DNA of 64,000 nt from contig OY970150.1 in assembly GCA_963706365.1 (NCBI GenBank), positions 1,005,864-1,069,863 of the forward strand, in the 5' to 3' direction. Below, piece by piece: positions 1,003-32,193 of the stretch. Positions within the stretch are counted from its first letter, which is position 1. Every line of letters begins with the position of its first letter. The position numbers and the translations under genes are program-made. Source of the stretch: an uncultured Alphaproteobacteria bacterium. Lineage in GTDB: Bacteria; Pseudomonadota; Alphaproteobacteria; JAJTHO01; G963706365. The notes under the pieces were generated by a model. That model did no database searches. It saw only the letters and a program-made list of their open reading frames with translations, and was not told the DNA's origin.

Positions 1003-1978
1003 CTAAAACCACTTCAACCGCTTGAATAATAGTACTTGGCAAATTATTAAAACAGTGAGTATCAGACAAAATAGTGCGAAGGCTTGTGGGTTATCTGAGC
1101 CGGGTATTCCCCCAACATTAATACCCAGCAACCCTGTTAAAAAGCCCAGTGGCAAAAAGATGGCCGCAATAACGGACAAAATATACATATTTTTGTTTAG
1201 TTTGTCTGACAACATATTGGCCAGTTCATCTTTAACGATTTGCGAACGTTCTCGAATAGCATCCAGATCCTCTACATAGCGGGTAATAAGGTTATAACTT
1301 TCCTGCAAATAGCGTTTATTATGTTCATCCAGCCAGGTTAATTCCTGCATTCTTAGCTGGTCAATGGCATCGCGCTGTGGCGCCATATAACGCCGATACA
1401 AAATGGCCTGCTTTCTAATATCTACAATTTTTTCTCTTAAATTGATACTCGCACTGGCTAAAACTTCTTCTTCGATAACATCCGTATCATCATCTAGCTG
1501 CGTTAAAGGCGATTCCATTCGGGCAAATAGGCGACGAACCAAGTTACAAACAAAATCCCCTGCCGTTACAATTTGTTGCCCGATCCGGCTTTTCTTCCAG
1601 CCGTTGCGCGATGTCTCCAACTGCCTTTAGAGGGCGTCGCTGAATACTGATGATGCGATGCGAATCAATCCATAAACGAATGGAAACCATGTCTTCCGGT
1701 TCTGCATCCTGGTTAAGATTTACACCGCGCAAAATTAACAATACGCCATCTCCTAATGCCAATAGTCGCGGCCTTGTTTCTTCCTCTAGTAAGGCATTTA
1801 CAATGATGGGGCTCAGATAATTAATATGGGTGTGCAACCAACGTGCTGTGTCTGGATGACAGGCATCTAAATGCACCCATGCCAGCTGATCATCTTTTAG
1901 ATATTTGACAATTTGCTTGTTATCTAAAGGGCAACTTGTTTCACCAATGGCATAAGCCTGTAAAATCGGGGAAGTCAT
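1003..1978 (-). CDS. CorA/ZntB-family divalent cation transporter, reading frame split into two overlapping ORFs (1544..1978 N-terminal part, 1003..1620 C-terminal part)
   Basis: C-terminal ORF ends with two TM helices and the CorA-family loop (YILSVIAAIFLPLGFLTGLLGINVGG). The upstream ORF has a soluble N-domain. The two ORFs are in different frames and overlap by 77 nt; the summed length (~330 aa) equals a normal CorA/ZntB. Confidence 0.7.
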
Positions 1979-1987
1979 TCAATAATT

Positions 1988-2869
1988 TTATCCTTCAATG
2001 GCTTCTTTCTTAGCAATTGTAAGATTTTCCTTAAAGGTTAAAGTGCGGTATGGAAACGGTATTTCAATACCCGCATTATCTAGGGCACGTTTCACAGCCG
2101 CAACAACGTTATCTTTCGATTGCCGCTCGTCTACTGGTTTTGAACCAGTCCACCAGGTTACCTCAAAATCAATGCTACTAGAACCAAAACTCTGCGCGAA
2201 AATTTGCACGGGTTTATCTTTATTAACGTATTCAGTGTTTTCAACCGCTTTTCTAATAACTTCCCGGCTTTTATCCACATCTTCGTCATAGGCCACACCA
2301 CACATAATGGTAACACGCCGCGTATCCCAATCAGTTAATACATGTACCGGGTTTTTAAACAGCATAGCATTAGGCAACATCACCAGTTCACCATCTGTTT
2401 GCCGAATATATGTATCACGAATTGTAATTTTCTTAACTTGCCCTTTTACATCATTAATCTCGATATAATCTCCCAGGCGCATTGGTTCGCGCAATAAAAT
2501 CATGATGCCGGCAATAAAATTTTCAAAGATATCTTTAAAGGCTAAACCGACCGCAATGGAACCTAGCCCCAGCCCCGCCAGTATTTTAGCTGGCGTCAAG
2601 TTTGGCATGGCAATAGTTGCAGCAATTAAAATACCAAAAACCCAGATGGCAATGGTTATAATCGTTTTGCTAACTTCTTTTAAAGAAGGCCGCATATTCG
2701 ATTTTCCGATAGTTTTGCGAGATATCAGCCTGACCAGTTTTACAACAAGCCATGTGAAACATAGGAATAAAAGTGCCGCCAAGCCTTGTGGCAAGAAGGC
2801 AATAAATTCTTTTACAAATCCTGCTGCCTGTTCTTGTACAATTTCCAGTGGCTCAATATCTTCAAACAT
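1988..2869 (-). CDS. Small-conductance mechanosensitive channel (MscS family)
   Basis: 293 aa with N-terminal TM helices and an MscS beta-domain signature (LGDYIEINDVKGQVKKITIRDTYIRQTDGELVMLPNAMLF). Confidence 0.8.
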   Translation of the reverse strand: MFEDIEPLEIVQEQAAGFVKEFIAFLPQGLAALLFLCFTWLVVKLVRLISRKTIGKSNMRPSLKEVSKTIITIAIWVFGILIAATIAMPNLTPAKILAGLGLGSIAVGLAFKDIFENFIAGIMILLREPMRLGDYIEINDVKGQVKKITIRDTYIRQTDGELVMLPNAMLFKNPVHVLTDWDTRRVTIMCGVAYDEDVDKSREVIRKAVENTEYVNKDKPVQIFAQSFGSSSIDFEVTWWTGSKPVDERQSKDNVVAAVKRALDNAGIEIPFPYRTLTFKENLTIAKKEAIEG

Positions 2870-2918
2870 ATGTTCAAAAGAACAAAGCTAATATAAATAT
2901 ACCATAATCATTCGTGTT

Positions 2919-3844: not shown

Positions 3845-4821
3845 ATGAGTCTATTAGAATCCCGTCCTGTTTACAAACCGTTCAACTACCCCTGGGCTTA
3901 CGATGCCTGGTTGATGCAGCAGCGCATCCACTGGCTGCCGGAAGAAGTGCCGCTGGCCGACGACGTTAAAGACTGGCAGCGCACCCTTACCGAGGGCGAA
4001 CGCAACCTGCTTACCCAGATTTTTCGGTTCTTCACCCAGGCCGATGTGGAAGTGAACAACTGTTACATGAAGCACTATTCGCAAGTGTTTCAACCCACCG
4101 AAGTGCAAATGATGATGGCAGCGTTTTCGAATATTGAAACCGTGCATATTGCCGCCTACTCCCACTTGCTAGACACCGTTGGCATGCCGGAAATTGAGTA
4201 TTCCGCTTTCCTGCAATACAAGGAAATGAAAGACAAATACGACTACATGCAAAAGTTTGGCGTGGACACCAAGCGTGATATTGCCATAACGCTGGCCGTG
4301 TTTGGTGCATTTACTGAAGGTTTGCAACTGTTCGCCAGTTTTGCCATGTTGTTGAACTTTCCGCGACATAATATAATGAAGGGCATGGGGCAGATTGTTT
4401 CTTGGTCTGTACGTGATGAAACCCTACACTGTACCTCTGTGATTCGCTTGTTTAAAACCTTTCTGCAAGAAAACCCGGAAGTGATGGACGATAGTTTACG
4501 CGCCGATTTAGCCAGTGCGTGTAAAACTATTGTTGAACACGAAGATGCCTTTATTGATCTGGCGTTTGAAATGGGCGGCATTCAGGGCCTGAACGGGTGA
4601 AGAGGTAAAACAATACATTCGCTATATTGCTGATCGTCGTTTGCATCCACTTGGGCATAGATCCGATCTATAATATAGAAGAAAACCCCCTGCCCTGGAT
4701 TGATGAAATCATGAACGGTGTGGAACATGCCAACTTCTTTGAAAGCCGTGCCACGGAATATACCAAGGCCGCAACAACAGGCAGTTGGGAAGAAGCATTT
4801 GATACAATGTTAGCCGCATAA
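3845..4821 (+). CDS. nrdB: Ribonucleoside-diphosphate reductase beta subunit (class I R2), reading frame broken twice near the 3' end
   Basis: 251-aa ORF matches R2 through ...EMGGIQGLNG*. The continuation NGEEVKQYIRYIADRRLHPLG is in the +1 frame (shift at cGGGtga, ~4595). A second shift at cttGGGcat (~4660) restores ...IDPIYNIEENPLPWIDEIMNGVEHANFFESRATEYTKA (the listed 64-aa ORF 4627..4821). No nrdA is adjacent. Confidence 0.85.
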
Positions 4822-4980: not shown

Positions 4981-5826
4981 ATGTCAAACTTAGAACACGG
5001 CAAATTTGCTAATTCAGCTATGAAAAAAAAGCTGCTGGATAAAGAAGAAGAAATAGAGCTCGCCAGAAGCTGGCTGGAAGACAAAGACGAGGCTGCTTTA
5101 TCCAAACTGATTTTAGCCCATGGTCGATTGGTTGTAAGCAATGCCGCAAAATTCCGCTTTTATGGCTTGCAACAGGGTGATTTAATTCAGGAAGGCAATA
5201 TCGGTTTAATAGAAGCCGCCAACCGTTTCGATTATACCCGCGATATTCGTTTTTCTACTTACGCAACCTGGTGGATTCGCTCTTATATGCAAGATTTTAT
5301 TTTAAGGAATTGGTCTATTGTAAGAACAGGAACAACCTCTGCGCAAAAATCGCTATTTTTCAATTTGCGGCGTTTGCGTTCGAAAATTGAAGAAACCAAC
5401 CGCGAAGAGTTGGGTGATAAAGGACGCAAGGAGATTGCCAGGCAACTAGGTGTTAAGCTTGTTGAGGTTGAAAAAATGGAAAACCGCCTCAATATGTCCG
5501 ATCAATCCTTAAACATGAAATGTTTTGATGATTCAGATACTGATATTCAAGATTTACTAGTGGATGAAACAGCCGACCCTGAACGCCTCGCCACCAATCG
5601 TATTGATGCAGAAACCCGCCATAAATATATTAACCTGGCACTAGCCAGTTTAACCGAACGAGAGCAAACAATTGTAAAACAGCGCCGCCTTCGGGAAGAT
5701 GGTATCACTTTAGAAGAGCTTGGCAAAAAACTGGGAATTAGCAAAGAGCGGGTACGACAACTTGAAGCCGGTGCCTTAAATAAAATGCATGTTTTTTTAG
5801 GGGATAAATTGGGGTTATTGTGTTAG
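4981..5826 (+). CDS. rpoH: RNA polymerase sigma-32 heat-shock factor
   Basis: 281 aa. Sigma-70 region 2 ([18 protein letters not shown]...YATWWIR), RpoH box ([13 protein letters not shown]), and region 4 HTH ([21 protein letters not shown]). Confidence 0.85.
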
Positions 5827-6226: not shown

Positions 6227-7654
6227 TTAACTCCTGAAAATAGCGTTAAACGCCTGGTTGATGTTTGTATATTGGAATTGATAGCCACCGGTTTGTGTAG
6301 GCAAAACTTTCTGACCATTCGCCATTAAATCTTCACCCATTTTACCGAAAATAATTTTTACCAATAAAAGGGGCATCGGTAAAAGCGCGGGGCGGTGCAT
6401 GGCTTTGCCCAAAGCTTTGGCAAATTCTTTTTGCGGCACAGGCTGCGGGGCGGTTGCATTCACAACACCTGTCACCTGTTTATTTAAACAATGCAAGATA
6501 AGCCCGACCATATCGTCGCGGTGAATCCAAGACCACCATTGCTGGCCATCACCAATTGCCCCCCCTGCCCCACAATCATAGGGAATTAGCAGCTCTCTTA
6601 AAGCACCACCGTCTTTTTCAATAACCAGTCCAATCCGCAAAATTGTTGTGGGGATTGTAACAGCCTGAAGGTTTTCTTCCAGTTCCATACATATACGTTG
6701 AGCAAAGCTGCCATCTTGCTGCAATTGGCTATTTTCTGTGTATTCGTTGGTTGCATGCATACCGTAAATACCGATGGCAGAGGCCTGAATAAACTGATCT
6801 GGTTTATGTTCTAACCGTTCCATTAAACCGGTTAGGCCATATAACATTTGCATGCGGCTATCGCGAATTTTAAGACGTTTTTTCGCTGTCCAGCGTTTGG
6901 CAACCGGTTCACCAGCCAAATTAATGATGGCATCAATTTTTTCATGGTTATGAATATATTCCAGTGATTCAATAAAGGTAACGCGCCCTGTAAACTTGTC
7001 TCCTGCTTTTAAAATATTACGCGTTAGAACCGTTACTTCGTGCCCTTGGTTAATAAGTTCCTGGCATAGGCGTTGTCCAATAAAGCCGGTTGCGCCTGTA
7101 ACGAGGATACGTTGGTGCATTTTTTTCAGTATTGGAAATTCAAAGGTATTAACTGGCTGTGGTTTACTTAGTTTTAAACCTCTGGCTAAATCCCGAATAC
7201 CCCATGTGAAAACACCCAGGGCATACAACGTCATCACCCAAGATAAAAAACCGTAATTTACAGTAAAAAATCCGCTAGGCTGGCCTTTCCATTGCCATAA
7301 AATAGGCATAAACAGGGCAATGATGGCACCATAGTTTAGGGTTAGAATTGCATGGGTCACACGCTCGGTGGCGGGCAGTTTTCGGCTGCGATCTTCTTCA
7401 ACAAAATCCCACAATGTTATCAAAACTTCTGTTAAAATAATGGCTGCAAATACCCAGGCCAGCGCACCGTGCCAATGAAACCAGCCAAAACTGATGAATA
7501 CCACGGCGTAAAACATATTACGTACGCCATGTAACAACATCTCCTTTGCGGCTGTTTTACGCCAAGGCAACTTTTCTATTAATTCATGGTGATAAAACAT
7601 GTCAAAGGCTCCCAAAAGCCCTTGCACGGTTAAAAATATAAGAATAGCTTCCAT
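6227..7654 (-). CDS. Membrane-anchored NAD-dependent epimerase/dehydratase family protein (TIGR01777/YfcH-like, DUF1731 C-terminus)
   Basis: 475 aa. An N-terminal ~170-aa multi-TM domain is fused to a Rossmann domain (ILVTGATGFIGQRLCQELINQGHEVTVLTRN). The start codon overlaps the stop of the upstream gene at 7654 (ATGA). Confidence 0.7.
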   Translation of the reverse strand: MEAILIFLTVQGLLGAFDMFYHHELIEKLPWRKTAAKEMLLHGVRNMFYAVVFISFGWFHWHGALAWVFAAIILTEVLITLWDFVEEDRSRKLPATERVTHAILTLNYGAIIALFMPILWQWKGQPSGFFTVNYGFLSWVMTLYALGVFTWGIRDLARGLKLSKPQPVNTFEFPILKKMHQRILVTGATGFIGQRLCQELINQGHEVTVLTRNILKAGDKFTGRVTFIESLEYIHNHEKIDAIINLAGEPVAKRWTAKKRLKIRDSRMQMLYGLTGLMERLEHKPDQFIQASAIGIYGMHATNEYTENSQLQQDGSFAQRICMELEENLQAVTIPTTILRIGLVIEKDGGALRELLIPYDCGAGGAIGDGQQWWSWIHRDDMVGLILHCLNKQVTGVVNATAPQPVPQKEFAKALGKAMHRPALLPMPLLLVKIIFGKMGEDLMANGQKVLPTQTGGYQFQYTNINQAFNAIFRS

Positions 7655-8325
7655 TAGTTTACCTTTCTTTTAAATAGACCAGTTTGAAAAAATGTTTCGC
7701 CCAATTGTTTGTGTGTCATGCGAATAGTAAACCGAAACTGGCCACTGCCTTTGTCTTCATGGATTACATGTGTTTGGCCGGGGGTGATAAAATGCGGCAG
7801 CTTTAGGCGGAATTTCCCAACTTGAAAGAAATAATGCACCCCTTTAAAATGTAACTGCTGGTTTTCAGCATACACCCGCAATACCATGCCAAAACCGCCG
7901 CCCACGCATTCTAACAAATGTTTACTTTTACTATCGCTACTTTTTACGCTTGTTACGGTATAAGGTTTCTTGTTTGGTAAATGGTAAGTACGCTGCCAGC
8001 ATACGCCTTTTCGTTTTATACAACGAAATAATTTCACATCCATAGGAATGGCATCCCCCTCAAACGGCGTTAATGGATTGCCGATAATCTTGGTTAGCAC
8101 AGCAAACAACCAGCCGGTTCTAGAACAGCGTGTGTCCATATGTCCTTTGTAATGAATCAATTCGTTTTCTGCAGGGTCGTGCATAAAACGGGCTTGGATA
8201 TTGGCATGCAATTCTTGCCATTGATCACCAAGATGTTCGCTTAGCATACTGGAGGGTGTTTCAGGCAAATAAACGATATTTTGTTTGTAAGCTTGCTGTG
8301 CCATTGAAATCTCCTGTAAAAACAC
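7654..8325 (-). CDS. Hypothetical protein, possibly DUF4166 family (often co-located with TIGR01777 epimerases)
   Basis: 223-aa ORF translationally coupled to the downstream epimerase gene. Family assignment is from memory of the gene-neighbourhood pattern only. Confidence 0.4.
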   Translation of the reverse strand: MFLQEISMAQQAYKQNIVYLPETPSSMLSEHLGDQWQELHANIQARFMHDPAENELIHYKGHMDTRCSRTGWLFAVLTKIIGNPLTPFEGDAIPMDVKLFRCIKRKGVCWQRTYHLPNKKPYTVTSVKSSDSKSKHLLECVGGGFGMVLRVYAENQQLHFKGVHYFFQVGKFRLKLPHFITPGQTHVIHEDKGSGQFRFTIRMTHKQLGETFFQTGLFKRKVN

Positions 8326-8348
8326 TATATTAATATTTAACTAATAAA

Positions 8349-8375
8349 CTAAATAACATATTTTTAGTTATTTAG
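8349..8375. promoter_or_regulatory. Perfect inverted repeat CTAAATAAC-N9-GTTATTTAG in divergent promoter region (candidate ArsR-family operator)
   Basis: Read directly: ctaaataac atatttttA gttatttag, 66 bp upstream of the ArsR-family gene and upstream of the divergent DUF4166/epimerase/DCC operon. Confidence 0.35.
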
Positions 8376-8441
8376 TCAATAGGTTAAATACAATTGGTGC
8401 TATTGCCCGCCAGTGTGCTATACTTATATGAATAGAATCTT

Positions 8442-8779
8442 ATGACAAAACGCAACAACCCCTTTAATGAAAAAATCTTCTCCGCATTGTCTTCCGGAGT
8501 ACGGCGCAACATTCTGGCTTATTTATCGCACACTGATTTAACTGCCGGCGAAATTGCCGAGCGTTTTGAAATTTCAAAACCATCTTTATCCAAGCATTTA
8601 AATATTTTGGAAAATGCCGGGCTTGTAACTAGTGAAAAAAAGGCCAGTTTGTGCATTACAAACTGGTGCAAGATAATTTGGCAAATACGCTGAACGGCTT
8701 TATGCAGGAAGTTTGCCCCGTTAGGCGCCCCATTCGCAAAGAAAGTAAGAAACTGGCTGAAAGCAAGAGTGTCAATTAG
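8442..8779 (+). CDS. ArsR/SmtB-family HTH transcriptional regulator, reading frame broken at an A8 run
   Basis: N-terminal HTH (LTAGEIAERFEISKPSLSKHLNILENAGLV). After gtgAAAAAAAAggcc (~8633-8642) the ArsR wing continues in the +1 frame (GQFVHYKLVQDNLANTLNGFMQEVCPV...SVN*, stop at 8779). The annotated frame instead gives a nonsense tail ...CITNWCKIIWQIR*. Confidence 0.7.
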
Positions 8780-8894
8780 CAGGATTATAGAAAACCCATT
8801 GACCAAGCCATTATAATCCATCATAAAGATGCCGTTACTTTTACCCCTGCGGGAGAATCGTTTACGATACCGAAGGCGCAACCGCCCTGGAAAC

Positions 8895-9012
8895 GCTCAG
8901 GTCACCGGACTGTAGGGTAATGTAGCCTCTGGAAAGTGGTTTACCACGCCGAAGAAGTCAATCTTTCAGGCCGTTTAATAGCGAAAGACAGAGAGGGCAT
9001 AAACGATTAGGA
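8895..9012 (+). promoter_or_regulatory. Candidate glycine riboswitch (gcvT leader)
   Basis: Leader of the gcvT operon contains CTCTGGAAAG...CACGCCGAAGAAGTCAA...CTTTCAGGCC...GACAGAGAGG, resembling the conserved glycine aptamer elements (CUCUGGAGAG / CGCCGAAGGAGCAA / CUCAGGCAAAAGGACAG). Not folded computationally. Confidence 0.45.
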
Positions 9013-9017: not shown

Positions 9018-10114
9018 ATGTCAAAACTACTACCGCTGCACGATATACATCTTAGCCTAGGTGCGAAAATGGTGCCGTTTGCCGGCTATGAAATGCCCAT
9101 TCAATACAAAGACGGCATTATGCAGGAACATTTACACACGCGGGAAGAAGCCTCCGTTTTTGATGTTTCCCATATGGGGCAAGCTTTGCTAATTGGGGAA
9201 GGCTGCCGATAAATATCTGGAAACCCTGGTACCAGGTGACATTCAAAATCTTGAACTTAACTGTATGCGCTATACAGTTCTATTGAATGTACAAGGCGGC
9301 ATCATTGACGATTTAATGGTGACACGCCGCATTCACAACAATGAACCTTGTTTATTCCTGGTTTTTAATGCCGCACGCGTAGAACATGATTTTGCGGCCA
9401 TTGGGGATAACCTGCCAGGGCATTTAACCCTGCGCCCGATGCCGCAACATGCTTTACTTGCGGTGCAGGGCCCCAGGGCAGAAGCCGCTGTAGCCGCTTT
9501 GCTGCCCGGATGCGGCGCATTGCATTTTATGCATGGTATGGACATTGAATATAAAGGCGTGCCTGTTTATGTTAGTCGTTCCGGTTATACCGGTGAGGAC
9601 GGCTTTGAAATTTCTATTCCCAGCCGGGCGGCAGAACGTTTTTTACATGATTTAGTGGATACAGAACGCGCCAAACCGGCTGGCCTTGGTGCCAGAGATA
9701 GCCTGCGTTTAGAAGCAGGTCTTTGTTTATATGGCCATGATCTTAGCGAAGAAACCACCCCTGTTGAGGCCAGTATAGGCTGGGTTATCAACAAAGGGCG
9801 CGAACAAAACTATGCGGGTGCTGCGCGTATTCAGGATCAGCAAGAAAAATGGTGCCCCACGTAAATTAACGGCCTTTACTGTACAAGGCCGTGCCCCGGT
9901 AAGGGAAGGCGCTGAAATTTTTCTAGGGCTTGAAAAAGTGGGCGAAATTACCAGCGGTGGCTTTTCTCCCACCCTGCAAAAACCTATATGCATGGGGTAT
10001 GTCAGTAAAAAAGCCAATGCCTATACGGCAAAAGTACGCGGTAAAGAAATTGATTTAATTGTAACAAAATTACCGTTTGTTGAACATCGGTACAAAAAGG
10101 AAATTAAGGCCTAA
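9018..10114 (+). CDS. gcvT: Glycine cleavage system T protein (aminomethyltransferase), reading frame broken twice
   Basis: Three consecutive ORFs (9018..9212, 9193..9864, 9812..10114) in frames 3, 1 and 2 together give a contiguous GcvT: ...[11 protein letters not shown] | [11 protein letters not shown]...[11 protein letters not shown] | [22 protein letters not shown]... The shifts are at ttGGGGaagg (~9200) and caagAAAAAtgg (~9850). Confidence 0.85.
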
Positions 10115-19800: not shown

Positions 19801-22800
19801 AGTTGTTGGCGGCGGTGGCAGTGGTGCGGGTTTAGGAACAAATCCGGGATCTGGCGGCGGGTCAGGAGGTGGCAGTGGCGGAGGCGTTGTAACCATTGAT
19901 GGAGGAGATGGTACGGATAAAATAATTTTTGCTGCTGAAACCGCTGTTGTTGTTGTTGATTTACAAAACGGTACAGCCACAGGTTCCTTTGGTACTTATA
20001 ACTTTACTAGTTTTGAAAGTGTTGTCGGTGGTGTGAATAATGACACCCTAATTGGTAGTACAGCGGACAATATTATTGAAGCTAATGACGGAGACGATAC
20101 TGTAATTGGCACCACAGGTAATGATACCTTGGATGGAGGCAATGGCAATGATATCGTGGACTATAGTAATTTAACCAGCGGTATAACAGCTTCTTCTACC
20201 AGTGTTACGGGTAGTGGCTTTACCGATACTTTAAGTAATTTCGAAACCGTTATTACCACAGATTATGACGATGTTATTAACGATGATAGCGCCAGTACTG
20301 TTTATGAAACAGGCGATGGCAATGATACTATTAATGCCAATTCCGGCACCGACAGCTTTGATGGTGGAACCGGCACGAATAAGCTAAGTTACACAAGCCA
20401 TAGTAACAGTAGTGCAGGCATTAACGCAGATATGTCTGTGCGCGACGGTAACAGCTTTTTCAACATCACTATAGGTGGCGAAACAGACAAAGCAAAAAAT
20501 ATCCAGATTCTTGAAGGTAGCACAGGCAACGATATTTTAACCGGCGATAATAACGCCAATACCTTGCTGGGTGCCGGTGGTGATGACATTCTAAATGGTG
20601 GTGGCGGTAATGATACGCTGGATGGTGGCGATGGTAATGATACTGTAAGTTTTTCCGGTGCCTCTAGTGGCGTTAACCTTAACATGAACATTGTTGACGC
20701 TAATGGTTTTGCCAATGCAACAGTGGGCAGCGAAACAGATAAATTAAAAAGTATCGAAATTATTAATGGCTCCAGTTTTGATGATATTATCACCGGTGGC
20801 AGCAGTAATGATACAATATCAGGGGGTTCTGGTAATGATATTCTGGATGGCGGTGCAGGCCTAGATACAATTAACGGCGGTGGTGGCTATGATACAGCAA
20901 CGTATGTATCCCTATCACAAGGTGTTAGTGTTGCTGGCAGTGTGGTTACCGATAATGACGGTAATGTGGAAACATTAATTAATATTAATGCCATCAGGGG
21001 AACGAACGCTGGCGATACATTTATTGGCACCAGTGGTAACGATATTTATGGTGGCCTAGGTGGCAACGATACTTTCACCGCAACCAATGGTAATGATAGC
21101 TATGATGGTGGCGCCGATACAGATACTGTTACTTATGTTAACAGCAGCGAAAACCTGAACATTAGTTTACGTACAGGTTCTGCAACCGGCACACTATTGG
21201 GAACACATACCTTAACAAGCATTGAAAATGTTACGGGTGGTTCTGGTAATGATACAATAGAGGGCGGTGTTGGCGCCAATATTTTAAATGGTGGTGCGGG
21301 CAGCAATACATTGAGTTACGCCAATGCCATTGCTGGTGTTAGTATTGATTTAACAGCCAATACAGCCATTGATGATGGCGGTGCCACAGATACCATCAGT
21401 AATTTTACCAGTTTAAATGCTTCTGGCTTTAATGACACCTTAAAAGGCAGCACCGGTAGTGATACCCTAAATGCCGGCGCCGGTAATGATACGATAATTT
21501 CTAGCACAGGTAACGACACCATTGACGGTGAAGCCGGTAACGATAGCCTGTCTTATGCAGCCACATCAACGGCTATTAATGTTAACTTATCTAGCGTAAA
21601 CGGCAGTGGTTTTGCCACTATTACGCAGAATACCAAAACAGATTTGGTGAAAAACATTCAAACATTTACCGGTTCCACCGCGGGTGACACTTTTATAGGT
21701 TCCAGCACCGCTGATATTTTCTATGGTGGTAGTGGTGCTGATACCTTCAGTGGCCGGGGTGGTAATGATATATTTGAAGGGGGCAATGATACAGATACGG
21801 CTGATTACGCTTATTCTGCTAATGCCATTACGGTTGATCTAACCAATCTGGTTGGTGGCTATGGGCAAGTTAGCTTTGCTTCCAGCAGCGAGGTGGACAG
21901 CCTTAATAGTATAGAAAATATTATCGGTACTGCCGGTAATGATACGTTTACCGGTGGCGCTGGTGCTAATAACATTAATGGTGGTGGCGGTAACGATACT
22001 TTTTATGGCGATGCTGGCAACGATTCCCTTGATGGGAACACTGGTAGTGATACTGTTGACTTTAGTGCCAATAGCACAGCTGTAAATGTTACATTAAACA
22101 GCCAGTCTGCCACCGCACAAACCATTACTTCTGGTTATGGCACCGACAGTATTCGCTATATTGAAAATATTACCACAGGCGGCGGTAATGATACCATTGA
22201 TACGCGCAATGATGCCGGTAATAACACCATTGTTACTAATGGTGGCAATGATACCATTTATGCCGGTGCGGGCAGCGATAGCTTAGATGCCGGTAGTGGC
22301 ACGAACACTTTACGTTTTGACGGTATGGCCAGCGCTGTGGTTCTGGATTTATCCACTTTGAATGGCAGTGGTTTTGCCACTGCAACTTCTGGCGCAAATA
22401 GCAGCCTGGTAAAAGGTTTTGGCACCGTTTACGGCAGTTCCAATGGCGATAATATTACCGGCACAAGTGGCAATGATATACTTTATGGCCAGGATGGTTC
22501 CGACACGCTTACAGGTGGCGCAGGCGATGATCTGATTATTGACCGCAATACAACCTATGCCACCAATAACACCAACATTATTAACGCCGGTGACGGTAAT
22601 GATACGGTAGAGGCCTACGTTAATGGCAGCACCATAGACGGTGGCAATCAAACCGATATTTTAACCTATAATGCTGGTAGTGGCACAAGCTCTAACCTAA
22701 CAGTGAACCTTACAGCAGAAACAGTTACAAATGGTGTTTATACCGACAATATCTCTAATTTTGAAGAAATTCGAACCAGCAATGGTAATGACAGTTTCAT

Positions 22801-23647: not shown

Positions 23648-23719
23648 GCATATCCTGATAGCGACAGGTTTATAAAAATTTAATCTTATCGCACCATACT
23701 GCACCTTAGAGAGCGTAAA

Positions 23720-25096
23720 ATGGTGCAAAACAACTATAATAACAAGCAACGCACGTTACAAACTGGTCAAATTGGCTGGTATGTGCCGCATAAAATGTGG
23801 GTCACACTGGTGGCCTTTTTCAGTTTATCTTTTGTTATGCGTGAGGATCTGATTGAAAGATTTCAATCGCATGTCAGTTTGAACGGCCTTATTTTAACCA
23901 CCATGATGGTTGTTGTGGTTATGGCTTTTAACAACATCTTCCATGTGCAACGCGCCGCCAACCTTTTAAAACGTATAGAAAACTTTGAAGATAATCCTGC
24001 TGCACAGGTGCAGGGGAAACTGGTTAAGGAATTACGTGGTAGTTATATTGATAACTATTATTTCCAGCAGCGCTTATCCAATTATGAAATTGGTAAAGAT
24101 GAATTTGTAAAGTTTGATGACAAGCAGGCAATGCTAATTAAATCGAAAGTTGGTTTTCGGTCTAATAACATGCGTAACACGGTGCAATACCTAGCAGGTG
24201 TTTTGGTTATGCTGGGCTTGATTGGTACGTTCTGGGGTTTGCTTGAAACCATTACAGCCGTTGGTCAAGCTATGGGAAGCTTAACGGGTGATTTGAATGA
24301 AGAAGGCAGCATGGAATCTTTCCTTGCAGCCATTAGTAAACCTTTGCAAGGTATGGGGGTTGCCTTTAGTGCCTCACTATTCGGGCTGTCCGGCTCTTTA
24401 TTAGGTGGTCTGCTAAACAGTTTTTGCGGTAAGGGAATGAACGACTTTATCGAACATTTTGGTATCTGGATAGATACCCGCATTCCGCAAGTACAACAAA
24501 AACCAAAAGCAGAATTAAACCCGGCAGAATTAATTGAACAACACAATAAAACCGTGGTGGCCGCCCTGGAAGATGTTCTAACCGGCCTACGCAAACAGTC
24601 ACAAACCATGTTTGTACAGTTAACAGAAGTTATGACGGAATTTTCCAGATTTTCGCAGCAGCAACAAACCGCCCTATCGGTGATTAGTAATGAAAGCAAA
24701 GTAAATGTGCGCTTGGCTGATAGCATGGAACAAGCCGTATTTGGCCTGAAACAAGAAGCACAATTAATACGAGAAAGAGTCGTTTCGCTGCCAGAAATTC
24801 ACCAATCTTTAGGCAATGATGTGCGCCATGTCGCCAATATTATTGCCGATTCGCAAGACAGTATTAGCCAGCATATTGTTAACAGCAGTGTAGATAGCAA
24901 TAAAACCCGCACCACCTTAAATAGCTTGCTGGAATCCTATGCCGCCATGGTTTCCTTAATGGAAAGACTCATTCAGCAAGACAAACTGGAAAAGCAAGCA
25001 CCAGAAACCACCAGCCAGATTATTATGGAAATGCAACAGGTGTTAAAACAACAGCTGGATGCGGCCAATCAACCGATTTCTTTAAAGGTGGGTTAA
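23720..25096 (+). CDS. MotA/TolQ/ExbB-family proton-channel protein with a ~200-aa coiled-coil cytoplasmic tail (SiiB-like)
   Basis: 458 aa. Four predicted TM helices; TM3/TM4 carry the family signature (LAGVLVMLGLIGTFWGLLETI...GVAFSASLFGLSGSLLGGL). A long Q/E/K-rich C-terminal tail. The stop overlaps the next gene start (TAAAATG). Confidence 0.65.
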   Translation: MVQNNYNNKQRTLQTGQIGWYVPHKMWVTLVAFFSLSFVMREDLIERFQSHVSLNGLILTTMMVVVVMAFNNIFHVQRAANLLKRIENFEDNPAAQVQGKLVKELRGSYIDNYYFQQRLSNYEIGKDEFVKFDDKQAMLIKSKVGFRSNNMRNTVQYLAGVLVMLGLIGTFWGLLETITAVGQAMGSLTGDLNEEGSMESFLAAISKPLQGMGVAFSASLFGLSGSLLGGLLNSFCGKGMNDFIEHFGIWIDTRIPQVQQKPKAELNPAELIEQHNKTVVAALEDVLTGLRKQSQTMFVQLTEVMTEFSRFSQQQQTALSVISNESKVNVRLADSMEQAVFGLKQEAQLIRERVVSLPEIHQSLGNDVRHVANIIADSQDSISQHIVNSSVDSNKTRTTLNSLLESYAAMVSLMERLIQQDKLEKQAPETTSQIIMEMQQVLKQQLDAANQPISLKVG

Positions 25097-25097
25097 A

Positions 25098-25676
25098 ATG
25101 TCAGACGATCCCGAAAGCACGATCCCCTGGCCTGGTTTTGTGGATATTCTTTCCACCGTTATCATCGTGTTCGTTTTCTTTATGATGATGACGTCAACCA
25201 TCATTTTCTTGATGGCGCAAAAACAGCAAGAAAAAGCTGTTTCAGATGCTAAGCAAGAGGTTATTGAAGACATAAACAATGTTGATATCAAACAGGTATT
25301 ACTGGAAAATAGTCAGCTTAAAAAACAAGTTGAAGATATGGTTCGGGTAAAATCTATTTTAGGGGAGTCAGAATCACAAATTGTTTCAAAGCAAGAAAAC
25401 GGCGTTAAAATTACTTTTAATGATTTTGGCGTAACGTTATTGCCCGAAACAACAGAATCTATAAAATCTTATTTAAGCAATGTAAGAAAAGTACAGTTAC
25501 AAGCTTATGTGCCGCAAAATTATGCAGCCACCCGGGAAATCGCCCTGAACCGTGCTTTGAACGTGCGAAATTTACTAATTCAGGCAGGTTTAAAACCAGA
25601 AAATGTGGAACTGAAAATTTTGACAGACACCACCGGAAACGAGGGAGCATATGGCCATATTCTCCTTTCATATTAG
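25098..25676 (+). CDS. MotB/TolR-like single-pass membrane protein with C-terminal OmpA-like region (SiiA-like)
   Basis: 192 aa. N-terminal TM (PGFVDILSTVIIVFVFFMMMTSTIIF). The C-terminus (REIALNRALNVRNLLIQAGLKPENV) resembles the end of OmpA/MotB peptidoglycan-binding domains. Overlaps the TolC start by 26 nt. Confidence 0.5.
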   Translation: MSDDPESTIPWPGFVDILSTVIIVFVFFMMMTSTIIFLMAQKQQEKAVSDAKQEVIEDINNVDIKQVLLENSQLKKQVEDMVRVKSILGESESQIVSKQENGVKITFNDFGVTLLPETTESIKSYLSNVRKVQLQAYVPQNYAATREIALNRALNVRNLLIQAGLKPENVELKILTDTTGNEGAYGHILLSY

Positions 25677-27027
25677 AACCGCTTTCTTATCACTGGCTAT
25701 TGCTCAAAATGCCCAGGCGCTTTCCTTACACGAAGTGATAGAGCGTGCTATTATTAACAGCCCAGAGCGCAGCATTGCCGCCGCGCAAATTGCCCAGGCC
25801 GAAGCCACCGTAGCAGAAGAGAAATCAGGTTATAAGCCACAAGTTAATGCCAAAGCCGATATTGGCCGCGAATATAATGATCGTTTTGCCCTAAGGCAGG
25901 GTGCCGTTGAAGCCAGTGGTTACAACACTGGTAAAAGCGCCAGTTTAAACATTAGGCAAATGCTGTTTGATGGTTACACAACCAAACAAACCGTTGCCAG
26001 ACGTTTAGCACAGGTAAAAGCCTCAACTTTCAACCAGAATAAAATTACAGAAGAACTGATTAACAGCACGATTGAAATTTATATGCAGCTGTATCAGTTT
26101 CAGCGAACCGTTATTGCCGCAAAAGAAAATTTAGTAACCCTAAAAACCATTGCTGATATTGTTAATACCCGTTTTGAAGAAGGGGACACAACAGAAGCTG
26201 AAAAAAACTATATAAAATCACGCGTTGCCAATGCACAGCAAGAATTAATTAATGCTGAAGCAGCTTTGGCGGATTCTAAAAGCGCTCTGGTTTTTCTGAT
26301 TGGCGATGTAGAACCTTTCGATGCCGCATTGCCTATTCTAAGTAATTTGGCAACTTTTCTACGCAATACCGATAACGATATATTCGTTAAACAGGCCTTT
26401 AATAATAACAGCGAGCTAAAAGTAAATACAGCTGAGTTAAAAGCCGCAAGATATGACATGGATAGCTCAAAAGGCGCTTACTACCCTAATCTGGATTTTG
26501 TTGTAAATGGTAGCCGTGCTGACGACCAAGGTGGTGACACCGGCAAAGCTGAAAGCGCCAGTGCCAAACTGGAGTTAACCTATACGTTATTTGATGGTGG
26601 ATTACGCGCCGCAACCCTGGACAGAAAGCTAGCCAAAATTAAAGAGGTACGATCACGGCAAGTACAATTGCGCCGCGAAATCAAACAACAAGTAGAACAA
26701 ACCATGAACCAGCTGCAAAGCAGCAGCCAGGAAATTCTATCAGTTATGGAAGAAGGCGAAGCCAACAAACGGCTGGAAGAGGTTTATATCGAACAATTTC
26801 AGTATGGCGATGGTGATGTGGATATCATTAACTTAGTAGAGGCGAGAGAACGGATTTTTTCTGCCAAGGTAAAAAAGTTTCGATTGGCATCTGAAGTAGT
26901 GAATGCCCATTACACGGCCAATCGTTTGACAGGCTTGCTATTGCCAGAATTCTGCACTTTGTCTTGTGATAGTACTGCAAGACCCCTAACGCCTGTGGAT
27001 ACAGAGAAAAATAGCGATGGAACATAA
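25651..27027 (+). CDS. TolC-family outer-membrane efflux/secretion channel
   Basis: 458 aa with signal peptide (AFLSLAIAQNAQA) and a two-repeat OEP architecture rich in alpha-helical/coiled-coil segments. Overlaps the downstream ABC gene by 11 nt. Confidence 0.8.
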   Translation: MAIFSFHIRTAFLSLAIAQNAQALSLHEVIERAIINSPERSIAAAQIAQAEATVAEEKSGYKPQVNAKADIGREYNDRFALRQGAVEASGYNTGKSASLNIRQMLFDGYTTKQTVARRLAQVKASTFNQNKITEELINSTIEIYMQLYQFQRTVIAAKENLVTLKTIADIVNTRFEEGDTTEAEKNYIKSRVANAQQELINAEAALADSKSALVFLIGDVEPFDAALPILSNLATFLRNTDNDIFVKQAFNNNSELKVNTAELKAARYDMDSSKGAYYPNLDFVVNGSRADDQGGDTGKAESASAKLELTYTLFDGGLRAATLDRKLAKIKEVRSRQVQLRREIKQQVEQTMNQLQSSSQEILSVMEEGEANKRLEEVYIEQFQYGDGDVDIINLVEARERIFSAKVKKFRLASEVVNAHYTANRLTGLLLPEFCTLSCDSTARPLTPVDTEKNSDGT

Positions 27028-28663
27028 AGATGCTTTTTTCTTAAAGGAGGCGCTGCAGATTCCTAGAACATTGTTGCGCGATATTCTTATAACCAGCCTG
27101 TTTCTAAATTTGCTAGCTGTTGCCCTGCCGTTATTTACCCGCGTAGTTTACGACAAAGTTATTCCCAATTTTGCCATCGAAACCCTGTGGGTATTGTTTT
27201 CCGGCATGGCCATGGTCTTGGTATTTGACAGCCTATTTAAGGCTAGCCGTAATTATATCATTCAGCATATTTCCAGCAAAACCCTGCAAGAATTAGAACA
27301 GCCGTTTATGACGCACCTGTTAAAAATACCAGCGCAACATAATCTGGCCAAAACAAATTACCATTTAAACAGCTTGCAAGAAATTTGCCGCTATCGGTTT
27401 CAATTACTAATTCCGGCAACTGTTGATATTCCTTTTGTACTGGTCTTTTTGCTAATCATTTATCTTATCTGCCCACCCATGGCGTTGGTGCCTTTGGGGG
27501 TTGGCCTTTCATTAATTGCCCTGCAAATAGCGTTTCATCATAAATTAAACAAGGCACTGGTTCATAGCCAGGAAGCCACAGAAGAACGATTGCAAACGGT
27601 TGCTGATCTTCTGCAAGGTCGTCAAACCATTCGGCAACTAGCCCACTATACGCCTTTTATCAATGATTGGAAAACAGCCAGCAGCAGAGCCGCAATTAAC
27701 AACAGCAGAATGACTTTTCTATACCAAATGGTGATGAGCCTTTCACAAAGTTGCTTGCTGTTTAACACGGTGTTGTTAATGATGGTCGGTGTTTATCAGG
27801 TGCAGGCCTCAACATTAAGTATTGGTGGGTTGCTGGCCATCAGCTTGCTAAGTGCCCGTATTTTAACGCCACTAATGTCGATTGGTGAATTATTAGCCAA
27901 ACGTCCAAAAATTCTTATGGAATTAAAACACATCAATCAGGTGATGCAAATTCCTGACGAAGGCACTGGGGCAGCTATTGCCTTTGCACCAAAACTTACC
28001 CTAACAAATGCAACCGTTGATCCTATTTTAAAAAATTGTAACTTTAGTTTACAAGCAAAAGAAAAATTGGCAATTGTAGGCAGCAGTGGTGCAGGCAAAA
28101 CCACATTATTACAAATATTATCCAAAGAGCGCACCCTTTCTTCCGGCAGTGTTTTATGGGATGATCGCAAGGACATTGCACCCGCCCATTTACGCCAACA
28201 AATGGGTATTGTTGAACAACACCCTTATTTTTTTGGACGTAGTGTGCGCGATAATTTATGCCTTGAACATCAATATGCCGATGCGGAACTTTTTAAAACA
28301 CTCGATTTGGTTGGCTTAACCACTTTTATAAAAGCCACCGGGCATGGGCTGGATTTAATGCTGGATAACGGCGGGCATAACCTTTCTGGCGGCCAGCGGC
28401 AATGCCTGGCATTGGCACGTGCCCTATTAAGACAACCTGATATTTTGTTGATGGACGAACCCACCAGCATGATGGATCATCAAATGGAACTGCAACTGGT
28501 ACAAAATTTGCGTTTTGCTTTAAAAAATAAAACAGTTGTCCTTGTTACCCACCGCACGCCGCTGCTCTCCCTAGTAGATAAAATTCTGGTTTTGGAAAAC
28601 GGGCAAGTACAGCAATTTGGCGATAAAAACACCATCCTAAATCAGCAGGCCAAGCATGGATAA
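27017..28663 (+). CDS. Type I secretion ABC transporter (HlyB-like permease/ATPase, no C39 peptidase domain)
   Basis: 548 aa. N-terminal 6-TM domain plus NBD with Walker A GSSGAGKTT, signature LSGGQRQCLALARAL, and Walker B ILLMDEPTS. Confidence 0.85.
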   Translation: MEHKDAFFLKEALQIPRTLLRDILITSLFLNLLAVALPLFTRVVYDKVIPNFAIETLWVLFSGMAMVLVFDSLFKASRNYIIQHISSKTLQELEQPFMTHLLKIPAQHNLAKTNYHLNSLQEICRYRFQLLIPATVDIPFVLVFLLIIYLICPPMALVPLGVGLSLIALQIAFHHKLNKALVHSQEATEERLQTVADLLQGRQTIRQLAHYTPFINDWKTASSRAAINNSRMTFLYQMVMSLSQSCLLFNTVLLMMVGVYQVQASTLSIGGLLAISLLSARILTPLMSIGELLAKRPKILMELKHINQVMQIPDEGTGAAIAFAPKLTLTNATVDPILKNCNFSLQAKEKLAIVGSSGAGKTTLLQILSKERTLSSGSVLWDDRKDIAPAHLRQQMGIVEQHPYFFGRSVRDNLCLEHQYADAELFKTLDLVGLTTFIKATGHGLDLMLDNGGHNLSGGQRQCLALARALLRQPDILLMDEPTSMMDHQMELQLVQNLRFALKNKTVVLVTHRTPLLSLVDKILVLENGQVQQFGDKNTILNQQAKHG

Positions 28664-29877
28664 ATTCTGGTTAAAAGCTAATTACCTGGCAGGTTTTGTT
28701 GTCATTTTACTTATTGCATGGGCAGCATGGGCAGAAGTACATACCGCGGTGCACGGCACTGGCCGTACTGTTTCAGCCGGTGAGAACAAGCAAATTCAAC
28801 ACCTGGAAGGTGGTATTATTGCCGATATTCTAGTGCAAGAAGGCCAGAAAGTCAGCACTGGCCAACCACTGTTTCGTATTCGTAATGAAAATAATACAGC
28901 GACATTAGAAGAAAATAAATTAAAGCTTCAAAGTTTGGAAAACCGACGCATTCCGCCTGCTAGCCGAGGCAGAAAACAAAAAGCCAGAATTTCCGATAGA
29001 AGCCGCCACCGAGCAATTATTATACGATAGCCGCAAACAACAACAAGCCCAAGAACTTCGTATCTTAACCCAGCAAATTCAGCAAAAAAGAAGTATTCTA
29101 TCAGAACAAACCACTCGCATTCGTAATTTACAACAAGAACTTTCTACGGCCACCAGCCAGCTCAATATTGTTAAACGCCTAGTTGAAAAAGGTGCTGCTT
29201 CGCAAAATAGAATGTTAGATATGCAAGCGCGTGTTAATAGCCTCAATACAGACATAAGCGGCACAAGACGCCGCATTCCCACTACTCAAGCAGAATTAAG
29301 TGAGGCACAAGGGCGCTTAAATGCGGCGAAAGCAGAGCAAAAAAATGCTATTTTAGAGGAATTGCGCCAGACCAAACTGGAAATTACCCAACTGCAAGAA
29401 CGCTTGAAAGCCAACAATGACGTTGTCTTACGTACCGAATTATTGTCGCCCGTAGACGGTATTCTGCAACGCCTGCACGTTCACACGATTGGTGGCACCG
29501 TTCGCCCCGGCGAACTATTAGCAGAAATTACCCCTAGTAATGATAACCTGATAATTGAGGCTCGCATTGACCCGAAAGACCGTGCGCATGTGTGGTATGG
29601 CCAAAAAGCCAATATTACTGTCACTGCCTTTAACTATATGAAATATGGCACACTACAGGCCAAAGTGCTGGAAATTAGTGCGGATAGTATTGAAGATAAT
29701 TCCAATCAACCGCCCTATTACCGCGTCAAACTGATTCTTGATACCGCCGACAGTCAATACACTATACTTCCCGGCATGGTTACAGAGGTGCACTTACTTG
29801 CTGAAAAAAGGACAGTTCTGCAATATTTACTAGACCCTGTATTGCGAACAAAACGTAATGCGTTTCGCTCTTTGTAA
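28656..29877 (+). CDS. HlyD-family T1SS periplasmic adaptor, reading frame broken once (~28950)
   Basis: ORFs 28656..29030 and 29212..29877 are joined by a -1 frame segment (RIRLLAEAENKKPEFPIEAATEQLLYDSRKQQQAQELRILTQQIQ...) after attCCgcctgc. N-terminal TM plus coiled-coil and the C-terminal HlyD beta-domain are all present. Confidence 0.8.
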
Positions 29878-29970
29878 CCCCCTTAAACCAAGCTATAAAA
29901 CATAGAGCGGCCATTCTACTGAAGGCTAGAATCCATTTCTCAGGAACTTAAGCCTAGTACTGTCATAAAC

Positions 29971-31548
29971 CTACCCCTGCAACAACCGCCAAATAATACC
30001 ATCTTGCAGCGCACGATAAGAGGCATCAATCACGTTGGTAGAAACACCAACAGTTGACCAGTGCTTGTCTATCGTTTCATCTTCACATTCAATTAATACG
30101 CGGGTAACAGCCTGGGTTCCCTGATTGGCTGTTAGAATACGCACTTTGTAATCTACCAGGTTAATATTATTTAGCTGCGGGTAATGATCTAATAATACTT
30201 TTTTTAAGGCTTTATCCAGGGCATTTACCGGGCCATTGCCTTCGGCCACAGACATCCGATTGGTCCCCTCAACAGTGGCTTTAACAGTGGCTTCTGATAA
30301 GGTGATAATATCGCCTTTTGCATTCCAGCGACGCTCATCAATAACGCGAAAACTGTTTAGGTTAAAAAATTCTGGCAACTGGTCAAGATGCCGTCTTGCT
30401 AGTAACTCAAAGCTGGCGCCTGCGGTATCATAGGCATATCCTTCAAATTCTTGCTGTTTTACTAAATCAACCAGGCTGTTGATTATTTCGGTGCTGTATT
30501 GCTCTAGATTTATATCAACTTCTTTTAAGCGTGATAAAATGTTGGAACGCCCTGCTTGGTCAGAAACGACAATAACACGTTGGTTGCCCACCTGTTCAGG
30601 TTCAATATGTTCATAACAGCGCGGGTTTTTCTCAACGGCTGAAACATGCAGCCCGCCTTTGTGGGCAAAAGCAGAAGCCCCCACATAAGGTTGCTGACGG
30701 TTGGGTATACGATCCAGCCGCTCATCTAACAACCTTGATAAGGTGACCAATTTTTTTAATTGTAGGTCATCAATACCAACATCAAAGCCCATTTTCAATT
30801 TTAAGGCTGGAATAATAGAGATCAGATTCGCATTGCCACAGCGTTCACCAAGGCCATTGATGGTGCCATGCACCAAACGAACCCCCGCCTCCACAGCCGC
30901 TAAAGAATTGGCAACAGCATTTTCCGTATCATTATGACAATGAATACCTAATGTTTCTCCGTCAAATTTCGGGGTTATTTCGTTGATAATCGCCTTAATT
31001 TGCTGGGGCAACATACCGCCATTTGTATCGCATAATACCAGCCAACGCGCCCCGGCCTCTTTTGCAGCCTGCAAAACTTTTAGTGTGTATATGGCGTTTT
31101 CTTTATAACCGTCAAAGAAATGTTCGGCGTCAAAAATAACCTCTTTGCCTAAAGAGGTTGCCTGCTGAATGGAATCCGTTACCCGCTGTACATTTTCTTC
31201 CCGTGTAATACCTAAGGCTTCTGTCACCTGAAAATCCCAGGCTTTTCCTACAAGGCAGGCGGCGGGTGCCGTTGATTGCAGAACAGTCATCAATCCTTGA
31301 TCATCGCTGGCTTTTCCGCTGCGCCGCGTCATGCCAAAGGCGGCAAATTTACTATGACTTAAAGCCGGTAATTTTTTAAAAAAGGCGTTGTCGGTGGGGT
31401 TTGCCCCTGGCCAGCCCGCTTCGATATAATCAATACCAATTTCGTTCAGTGCATGGGCAATAGCAGCCTTGTCAGCCACGTTAAAATCAACGCCCTGGGT
31501 TTGGGCGCCGTCTCTTAATGTGGTATCATACAGATAAACACGCGACAA
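29971..31548 (-). CDS. Citramalate synthase / 2-isopropylmalate synthase family protein (CimA/LeuA-like)
   Basis: 525 aa. N-terminal DTTLRDGAQ TIM-barrel catalytic motif, HxH metal ligands (GIHCHND), and a C-terminal LeuA-type regulatory domain. Confidence 0.8.
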   Translation of the reverse strand: MSRVYLYDTTLRDGAQTQGVDFNVADKAAIAHALNEIGIDYIEAGWPGANPTDNAFFKKLPALSHSKFAAFGMTRRSGKASDDQGLMTVLQSTAPAACLVGKAWDFQVTEALGITREENVQRVTDSIQQATSLGKEVIFDAEHFFDGYKENAIYTLKVLQAAKEAGARWLVLCDTNGGMLPQQIKAIINEITPKFDGETLGIHCHNDTENAVANSLAAVEAGVRLVHGTINGLGERCGNANLISIIPALKLKMGFDVGIDDLQLKKLVTLSRLLDERLDRIPNRQQPYVGASAFAHKGGLHVSAVEKNPRCYEHIEPEQVGNQRVIVVSDQAGRSNILSRLKEVDINLEQYSTEIINSLVDLVKQQEFEGYAYDTAGASFELLARRHLDQLPEFFNLNSFRVIDERRWNAKGDIITLSEATVKATVEGTNRMSVAEGNGPVNALDKALKKVLLDHYPQLNNINLVDYKVRILTANQGTQAVTRVLIECEDETIDKHWSTVGVSTNVIDASYRALQDGIIWRLLQG

Positions 31549-31550
31549 AA

Positions 31551-32193
31551 CTAAGCCGCACCTTCTGTCGCCTGCTTGTTTTGTATCACACCAATACGTT
31601 GTTGCAATTCTTGTAATTGATGCTCAATTTGCGAAAGTTCCTCTTCTGGCGAGATGCTTTTATATTCGGTTGCCTGGTTGCCTGATGACAAGGATTTAAA
31701 CGGCGTAAACATGTTTTGAAACATGCTCATATTATTGCGTGTCATCGCCTTAATGGTGTTACTAACATTATTATTCAGGCCAAAACTTTGCCCCGATGCA
31801 AGGCCAGTTCCCAAAGCCAATGGCTTTAAGATATTCGCGCATGCGATCCTGATTTTCAATAAAAGCGGCCATGCTTGCATCCAAGTATTTTGAAACCACG
31901 GTTTGCGTGCTGTCGCCATATAAACTGATAATGCGGCGCAAAAAATTCACCGGCAGCATGGGTTCAATGTCTTGCCCCAAATTGCTTTCTTGTTCAAAAA
32001 TAATTTGAATCAGAATACTGTGCGTAAGGTCTTTACCAGACTTCGCATCCTTTACAACGAACTCGACGTTTTTTCGCACCATTTCACGCAAGTCTTCCTG
32101 CGTAATATATTGGCTGGTTGCAGTGTTATATAAACGGCGGTTGGCATATTTTTTAATTGTCAACGGCATATCTGCTGAATGGGGCATGGCCAT
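31551..32193 (-). CDS. phaR: Polyhydroxyalkanoate synthesis repressor PhaR, reading frame broken once (~31800)
   Basis: N-terminal ORF (31771..32193) starts LTIKKYANRRLYNTATSQYITQEDL (PhaR DNA-binding signature). The C-terminal part (MSMFQNMFTPFKSL...) is in the overlapping ORF 31551..31919. The shift is near ggcTTTGGGaac. Confidence 0.75.

Follow-up and report, generated by a model that had tools for sequence, protein, structure and literature searches.

The 64,000-nucleotide stretch of DNA analysed here (hereafter, the window) belongs to an uncultured alphaproteobacterium (GenBank assembly GCA_963706365.1, contig OY970150.1, positions 1,005,864–1,069,863), and is a slice of a single 1,867,446-bp (1.87-Mb) contig in NCBI and ENA. 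It has a G+C content of about 43%, and about 50 open reading frames (ORFs) fill ~89% of it. Six genes, encoding a ZntB/CorA-like transporter, NrdB, an ArsR/SdpR-family regulator (the gene is termed arsR below), GcvT, HlyD and PhaR, are split by eight single-base shifts into adjacent ORFs that lie in different frames (Table 1). Broken genes thus amount to ~12% of the ORFs (about 1 in 8), which is far above the rate of an ordinary genome.

Frame breaks in six genes

The splits were found by three-frame translation and profile scans of the window. Family profiles continue over the junctions of the split genes and the translations place the same junctions, so that the frame breaks and the carry-over of protein similarity described in the initial annotation are both upheld. 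By frame arithmetic, seven of the eight shifts are +1 and one, that of arsR, is −1. The top-scoring family of the transporter gene is ZntB, whose profile is matched over positions 34–137 and then 137–327 with a change from frame 0 to +1 at the junction; its break had initially been placed near 1580, which agrees with the site at 1581–1582, under the name of a CorA-like gene, which is superseded. The NrdB profile is matched over positions 5–254 and then 272–325, with a middle piece in the third frame, and that of GcvT over positions 10–68, 67–281 and 281–370. HlyD matches TIGR01843 at positions 10–97 and 197–420. In the window, the match to the SdpR/ArsR profile covers only positions 1–58, and that to the PhaR profile only the N-terminal domain. 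The broken genes carry frameshifts only, i.e. no nonsense codons, deletions or insertion sequence (IS) insertions, and their DNA is otherwise identical to that of the intact allele.

The initial annotation spoke of at least eight genes and listed seven, six of which are those above. The seventh, an HI0074-like remnant downstream of gyrA, had been taken for a break of the same kind, but it has several frame changes and stops, and no family match was found in Pfam (E up to 0.1) or NCBIfam (E up to 1). This stretch is therefore unconfirmed as a gene and is unrelated to, and different in kind from, the single-base breaks; no Logan contig covers it. The double breaks of nrdB and gcvT were borne out by base-level comparison (two shifts each). 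The same comparison contradicts the assignment of every break to a homopolymer: only the arsR break lies in a long run, as had been proposed, although this run is A7 and not A8 in the window, and the insertion at 9841 lies in none. For gcvT, the A5 run near 9850 had been named in place of this extra C; for hlyD, a CC pair in place of the extra T at 28950/51; and for phaR, a TTTGGG motif that is ~15 nt away from the extra T.

Table 1. Positions in the window of the broken genes and associated features, of the indel events and of the comparison contigs (L numbers)
Feature	Positions	Strand	State in the window or difference from contigs	Run length (contig → window)
zntB/corA-like transporter gene	1003–1978	−	one split at 1581–1582; CG (two bases) where one is needed	
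nrdB (ribonucleotide reductase beta subunit)	3845–4821	+	two splits: extra A at 4592/4593, extra G at 4651–4653	
rpoH A8 run	5023–5030	+	codons 15–17 of rpoH (4981–5826); intact	
ArsR/SdpR-family regulator gene (arsR)	8442–8779	+	one split; A7 at 8635–8641 (one-base deletion), A8 in intact allele	
Glycine riboswitch ahead of gcvT	8840–8922	+	one T missing at 8917 in unpaired 3′ tail; extra G at 9005 in spacer	
gcvT (aminomethyltransferase)	9018–10114	+	two splits: extra G at 9200/9201, extra C at 9841 (outside any run)	
hlyD (type I secretion adaptor)	28656–29877	+	one split: extra T at 28950/28951	
phaR (polyhydroxyalkanoate synthesis repressor)	31551–32193	−	one split: extra T at 31823–31825 (coding strand A, AA → AAA)	
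Degenerate stretch downstream of gyrA (HI0074-like)	44096–44284	+	short; several frame changes and stops	
Indel, zntB	1581–82		two bases for one	
Indel, nrdB	4592/93		+A	1 → 2
Indel, nrdB	4651–53		+G	2 → 3
Indel, rpoH	5023–30		A8, against A6 in contig	
Indel, arsR	8635–41		A7, against A8	8 → 7
Indel, riboswitch 3′ tail	8917		−T	2 → 1
Indel, spacer	9005		+G	no run
Indel, gcvT	9200/01		+G	1 → 2
Indel, gcvT	9841		+C	no run
Indel, hlyD	28950/51		+T	1 → 2
Indel, phaR	31823–25		+T	2 → 3
L066	1–1580		no differences (100%)	
L002	1583–3704		no differences (100%)	
L068	3675–8955		72 substitutions, all within nrdB, plus indels	
L001	8942–11915		6 substitutions, 3 indels	
L069	11923–23818		10 substitutions, no indel	
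L003	22194–34334		3 substitutions, 2 indels	
L070	34996–41691		no differences (100%)	
L071	49195–53351		no differences (100%)	
L072	59122–64000		7 substitutions, no indel	

Comparison with near-identical metagenome contigs

Exact-protein look-ups retrieved Logan contigs from a single public run, ERR12040027, with which 50,057 bp of the window could be compared (Table 1). Outside nrdB these contigs match the window at 99.7–100%, and the frame-relevant differences are the listed single bases only. The run may be the very sample behind the assembled genome, because it is the only Logan run found to carry the organism. The comparison of orthologs in a sister population, which had been recommended initially, covers five of the broken genes: nrdB (protein P0121, 324 aa, on L068), arsR (P0125, 112 aa, on L068), gcvT (364 aa, on L001, which is 99.7% identical to the window), hlyD (406 aa) and phaR (213 aa, also P0127; both on L003) are all intact. 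The hlyD contig differs from the window by only three substitutions and two indels within 12.1 kb. For zntB, the partial ORFs of L066, which ends at 1580, and L002, which starts at 1583, combine into an intact protein of 324 aa when exactly one base is put between them. The arsR ortholog in L004 also reads in a single frame. Ahead of gcvT, the glycine riboswitch scores 55.3 bits in the window and 54.0 bits in L068 with the Rfam model; T8917 sits in the unpaired tail, so the scoring is uninformative on this base.

Exact look-ups of the window ORFs 4981–5826 and 7654–8325 gave no match. The former is unmatched because the rpoH A run differs, and the latter probably through start-codon choice (216 aa in L068, 223 aa for the window ORF). 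A scan with intact GcvT found nothing above 53% identity in JGI metagenomes, so that no third sample was obtained. An apparent near-identical match to nrdB (P0002) was dropped: it is a 379-aa protein with an internal duplication, on an unrelated ENA contig.

The rpoH gene presents the reverse case. The window encodes a full sigma-32 (NF005693, 348.6 bits against a cut-off of 315, profile positions 9–277 of 289), whereas the ERR12040027 contig has A6 in place of A8 and its ORF is truncated to 232 aa; this is the only site at which the contig, and not the window, is frame-broken. The difference reflects either genuine slipped-strand polymorphism or a contig error. More generally, the arsR (A7/A8) and rpoH (A8/A6) differences may be run-length miscalls or genuine slipped-strand polymorphisms. 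As in phase variation at contingency loci, these alleles differ only in the length of an A run in the 5′ part of regulatory genes, and the change switches the frame on or off. Classical contingency loci are, however, surface or restriction genes with longer tracts than those of arsR and rpoH, and the 2-base step of rpoH (A8 to A6) is unusual, so that phase variation, with two samples to go by, is only a possibility.

In total, 11 indel events separate the window from the contigs, nine being insertions and two deletions in the window. Two of the 11 involve long runs (A7 and A8), whereas nine lie in runs of three or fewer bases or outside runs. Among the homopolymer runs in the 50,057 bp, none of the 762 four-base, 195 five-base and 73 six-base runs differs (0 of 1,030 in total), and 2 of the 25 runs of at least 7 bases do; these longest runs make up ~0.4% of the sequence and 18% of the events. 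A rate rising with run length, as would mark homopolymer errors, was not found. The longest runs in the whole window are four runs of 8 bases. A frameshift that is judged by eye to lie next to a short run is no evidence for homopolymer error.

The events are strongly clustered: nine of the 11 fall in one 8.5-kb span (1.5–9.9 kb; permutation p = 1.3 × 10⁻⁴), and there are none in the intervals 11.9–28.9, 31.8–41.7, 49.2–53.4 and 59.1–64 kb. They also tend to lie close to substitutions. A synonymous G/T difference at 9197 lies 4 bp away from the extra G at 9201, both insertions in nrdB adjoin substitutions, and outside nrdB the proximity of indels to substitutions is modestly above chance (p = 0.01–0.04). 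A link to methylation motifs (GATC, GANTC) was considered and rejected, as no motif is common to the sites. At the zntB site, the metagenome assembly breaks at 1580/1583, exactly at the extra base of the window, and the flanks are not repeated in the window; this contig break looks like a one-base variant bubble in the de Bruijn graph. At the first nrdB site, the extra base is assigned to A because removal of C4588 instead makes a TGA stop. Here L068 has TTA as the Leu codon where the window has CTG, and the reading CTG-A-ACG of the window contains both third-position alleles in succession. Only at 1581–82 and 4591–93, where there is independent evidence of a variable base, can the idea of two alleles in a row be checked; at the remaining sites such a reading is trivially possible and proves nothing.

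Substitutions and indels differ in how they relate to selection, the substitutions having the look of real polymorphism under selection. Outside nrdB there are 26 substitutions, and the 19 that are classifiable comprise 13 synonymous and 6 non-synonymous changes. Within nrdB, 72 substitutions (7.4%) relative to L068 are confined to positions 3871–4770, with flanks that are identical for hundreds to thousands of bases, and the comparison gives dS (synonymous divergence) = 0.35, dN (non-synonymous divergence) = 0.024 and dN/dS (omega) = 0.07. By these values the nrdB allele evolved under strong purifying selection; recombination has exchanged one allele for another, or else the population carries two alleles side by side. 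The changes in gcvT (3 synonymous, 3 non-synonymous) are too few to judge selection. The indel events behave as unselected: nine of the 11 are in coding DNA, which is about proportional for a window that is ~89% coding. Selection that purged non-synonymous changes has left the frameshifts in place, and the events are therefore either not biological or extremely recent.

Origin of the frame breaks

The breaks are probably residual single-base consensus errors, mostly spurious insertions, of a long-read-derived assembly, partly at strain-variable sites. This explanation is favoured because the direction of the events is skewed to insertions (9 vs. 2), natural bacterial indels being usually biased to deletion; because the events are clustered, near variable sites, unselected and absent from an independent set of near-identical contigs; and because the window, at ~89% coding, does not have the look of a decaying genome. 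At the broken loci, the real genes are very probably intact in the organism. Residual gene-fragmenting indels are a typical flaw of long-read-only assemblies (PMC8812927; PMC12007338), and in nanopore-only bacterial assemblies deletions track homopolymers whereas insertions are often at runs of 1–2 bases (PMC12007338). Like such nanopore or PacBio artefacts, the events in the window are isolated single-base indels that split otherwise perfect housekeeping genes and are absent from accurate sequence of the same organism; the insertions are at 1–2-base runs and the deletions at long runs, and the contig is long and single. In the usual profile homopolymer-length errors predominate (PMC8812927), whereas only 2 of the 11 events in the window are of that type, and the events as a whole form a tight cluster and are linked in part to sites that vary between strains. 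The clustering and the variable sites therefore point to a mixed-haplotype consensus rather than to plain base-calling error.

From these features we infer both that the breaks originated in consensus building and not in the cell, and that mixed haplotypes were the means. The errors would be concentrated in the ~8.5 kb where the sampled population appears to hold more than one haplotype, and a consensus built from a pile-up of two haplotypes would give the signature of alleles in succession. At two or more variable positions, the assembly appears to have recorded the two alleles consecutively (CG in zntB; G followed by A in the nrdB Leu codon); if the zntB alleles are C and G, the CG of the window would be both alleles in a row.

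Several observations weigh against this explanation. The 9:2 bias toward insertions is only marginally significant, the events at 28951 and 31825 are far from any variable site, and the comparison draws on a single sample. The discrepancy at rpoH is reversed, so the differences do not all point the same way, and the lineage may harbour real indel polymorphism. The break at 1580/1583 could mean that a frameshifted zntB allele truly co-exists with an intact one. Errors this dense at non-homopolymer sites would also be unexpected if the assembly were a deep HiFi or short-read-polished one.

That the frameshifts are real and private to the sequenced strain, recording a very recent loss of zntB, nrdB, arsR, gcvT, hlyD and phaR, is unlikely. 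The setting for such a loss would be a host-restricted alphaproteobacterium with a small genome under relaxed selection, or a mutator, whose sister population in ERR12040027 keeps the genes. In favour of it are the small genome (a 1.87-Mb contig) and a deep, rarely sampled lineage: among 5.8 billion proteins none exceeds 70% identity to its GyrA, and the JGI metagenomes offer at most 53% for gcvT. The occurrence in one public run only fits host association, and the window contains an IS transposase, a PIN toxin and a decayed remnant. The frame-breaking A6 allele of rpoH in the metagenome copy suggests that real indel polymorphism may occur, the contig break at 1581–82 could be a bubble between intact and frameshifted alleles, and the indels in the substitution-rich tracts of nrdB and gcvT could have been imported together by recombination. 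Against these points stand 11 indel events to 26 substitutions outside nrdB, while the substitutions show purifying selection, and two independent +1 hits in each of nrdB and gcvT with no further lesion. Insertions at non-repeats (9005, 9841) and at 1–2-base runs are unlike replication slippage or loss of mismatch repair, which would concentrate changes in the longest runs, and all 1,030 runs of 4–6 bases are unchanged; the spatial clustering, the coding density and an insertion bias opposite to the usual deletion bias argue in the same direction. Pseudogenes accumulate in recently host-restricted bacteria such as Sodalis glossinidius and Mycobacterium leprae, which the window resembles in having many frameshifted housekeeping genes, a small genome and a probably host-associated lineage. 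In genomes of that type, however, coding density is low, dN/dS is raised and genes carry several lesions each, with nonsense codons, deletions and IS insertions, whereas the window has a coding fraction of 0.89, single-base shifts only, alleles that are otherwise identical to the intact ones, and in nrdB an omega of 0.07 at a dS of 0.35. A variant of this explanation, in which the +1 insertions of nrdB, gcvT, zntB, hlyD and phaR are real and arsR and rpoH are slipped-strand on/off polymorphisms between co-existing strains, is likewise improbable. If true, the window would show gene inactivation at its very onset in a host-restricted lineage, and the mutation spectrum would be unusual in favouring insertions and sites outside homopolymers; as a record of very recent strain-private gene loss it would be of moderate interest only.

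Two further explanations had been offered in the initial annotation. Systematic homopolymer-length miscalling (454, Ion Torrent or early nanopore) as the cause of all the breaks is highly unlikely. Among the errors that persist in long-read assemblies, those at homopolymers are the most frequent (PMC8812927; PMC12007338), and the two A-run events (arsR, A8 to A7; rpoH, A6 vs. A8) together with the over-representation of runs of at least 7 bases agree with it; yet the two sources agree at 23 of the 25 such runs and at all 1,030 of the runs of 4–6 bases, seven of the eight changes that break genes insert a base at a 0–2-base run of the intact allele, and homopolymer miscalls are mostly deletions (PMC12007338), whereas nine of the 11 events here are insertions. 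Pure homopolymer-platform error accounts for at most two events; sequencing or assembly error is the best-supported cause, as had been suspected, but the homopolymer mechanism does not hold. The other suggestion was a decaying genome with poly(A) slippage rescue, which finds no support, given a single break in an A tract, ~89% coding, short spacers and genes that are intact in the sister population. That the split genes still work, their frame being restored by programmed ribosomal frameshifting or by transcriptional slippage, is extremely improbable. In 2008, Tamas et al. reportedly described transcriptional slippage at poly(A) tracts that rescues frameshifted genes in Buchnera and Blochmannia, and the published slippage-rescued genes have tracts of about 9 or more A or T. 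The arsR break resembles these cases in that one base is lost from an A run, at which RNA polymerase can insert an additional A, but this run is no longer than A7, none of the other seven breaks is in an A/T tract, and the window has 43% G+C and few long runs. Slippage rescue has been reported for endosymbionts (reviewed in PMC5009743); transcription adds bases within A/T runs only, exponentially more often the longer the run, and even in Buchnera no event that restored a frame was observed (PMC5574713). Of the eight breaks, seven are +1 insertions located at G, C, T or single A, so rescue would need transcriptional deletions at non-repeats. No known recoding genes (prfB, dnaX, IS transposases) are among the broken genes, and the shift sites are not conserved in orthologs, given that the sister population, the family profiles and the L004 arsR are all single-frame; the breaks are accordingly no conserved recoding feature.

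The frame breaks, taken as consensus errors, constitute an ordinary assembly-quality problem, which the initial annotation was right to suspect while assigning it to the wrong error class. The main consequence concerns quality control: annotation would turn about 1 gene in 8 into a pseudogene or a pair of fragments despite a very probably intact copy, and to infer genome decay, or loss of ribonucleotide reductase or of glycine cleavage, in the lineage would be wrong. The annotation of the window, and probably that of the whole contig, needs frame-aware correction against reads, and the earlier advice of frame-aware gene calling and read mapping was sound.

The organism and the surroundings of the broken genes

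The organism is, on protein sequence similarity, a deep-branching alphaproteobacterium, found in one public run only. After the best GyrA matches, the next, at 62–63% identity, are from Azospirillum, Rhodospirillaceae and Holosporales metagenome-assembled genomes (MAGs). A 475-aa NmrA/DUF1731 protein was tried as a probe for a close relative and none was found, the top match being the MAG "Rickettsiales bacterium MSM10" (62% aa), of use only in showing that the arsR ortholog is in one frame. The cassette ArsR/SdpR–DUF4166–NmrA/DUF1731 (window 6227–8779; L004 8951–11437) is the only part of the first 20 kb that is common with MSM10. The 475-aa protein has other relatives in MAGs of Acidobacteria and Chloroflexota, and this patchy distribution suggests horizontal transfer.

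The hlyD gene closes a type I secretion set (16844–29877), in which a 2267-aa protein without a domain match is followed by an OEP/TolC-like gene, an ATP-binding cassette (ABC) exporter and HlyD. A 1121-aa protein with Calx-beta and HemolysinCabind matches is encoded at 35774–39139. Both large proteins are probably secreted adhesins or of the RTX type.

The cumulative GC-skew minimum lies near 46–48 kb, close to an IS5-like DDE transposase gene (49201–49959), a PIN-domain gene (50126–50494) and rsmG (gidB; 50518–51159), and the region of ~44–51 kb may be the neighbourhood of the replication origin. At the end of the window (59299–64000) are type IV secretion genes for TrbI, a VirB11-type ATPase and a TraG/VirD4 coupling protein, the last running off the window end; the seven substitutions relative to L072 are all in 63174–63862. 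A repeat of ~59 bp is present at ~11855–11913, 34301–34359 and 59020–59074, in intergenic positions that coincide with metagenome contig ends; its copies are 96–98% identical, and it may be a repetitive extragenic palindromic (REP)-like or a terminator-like element.

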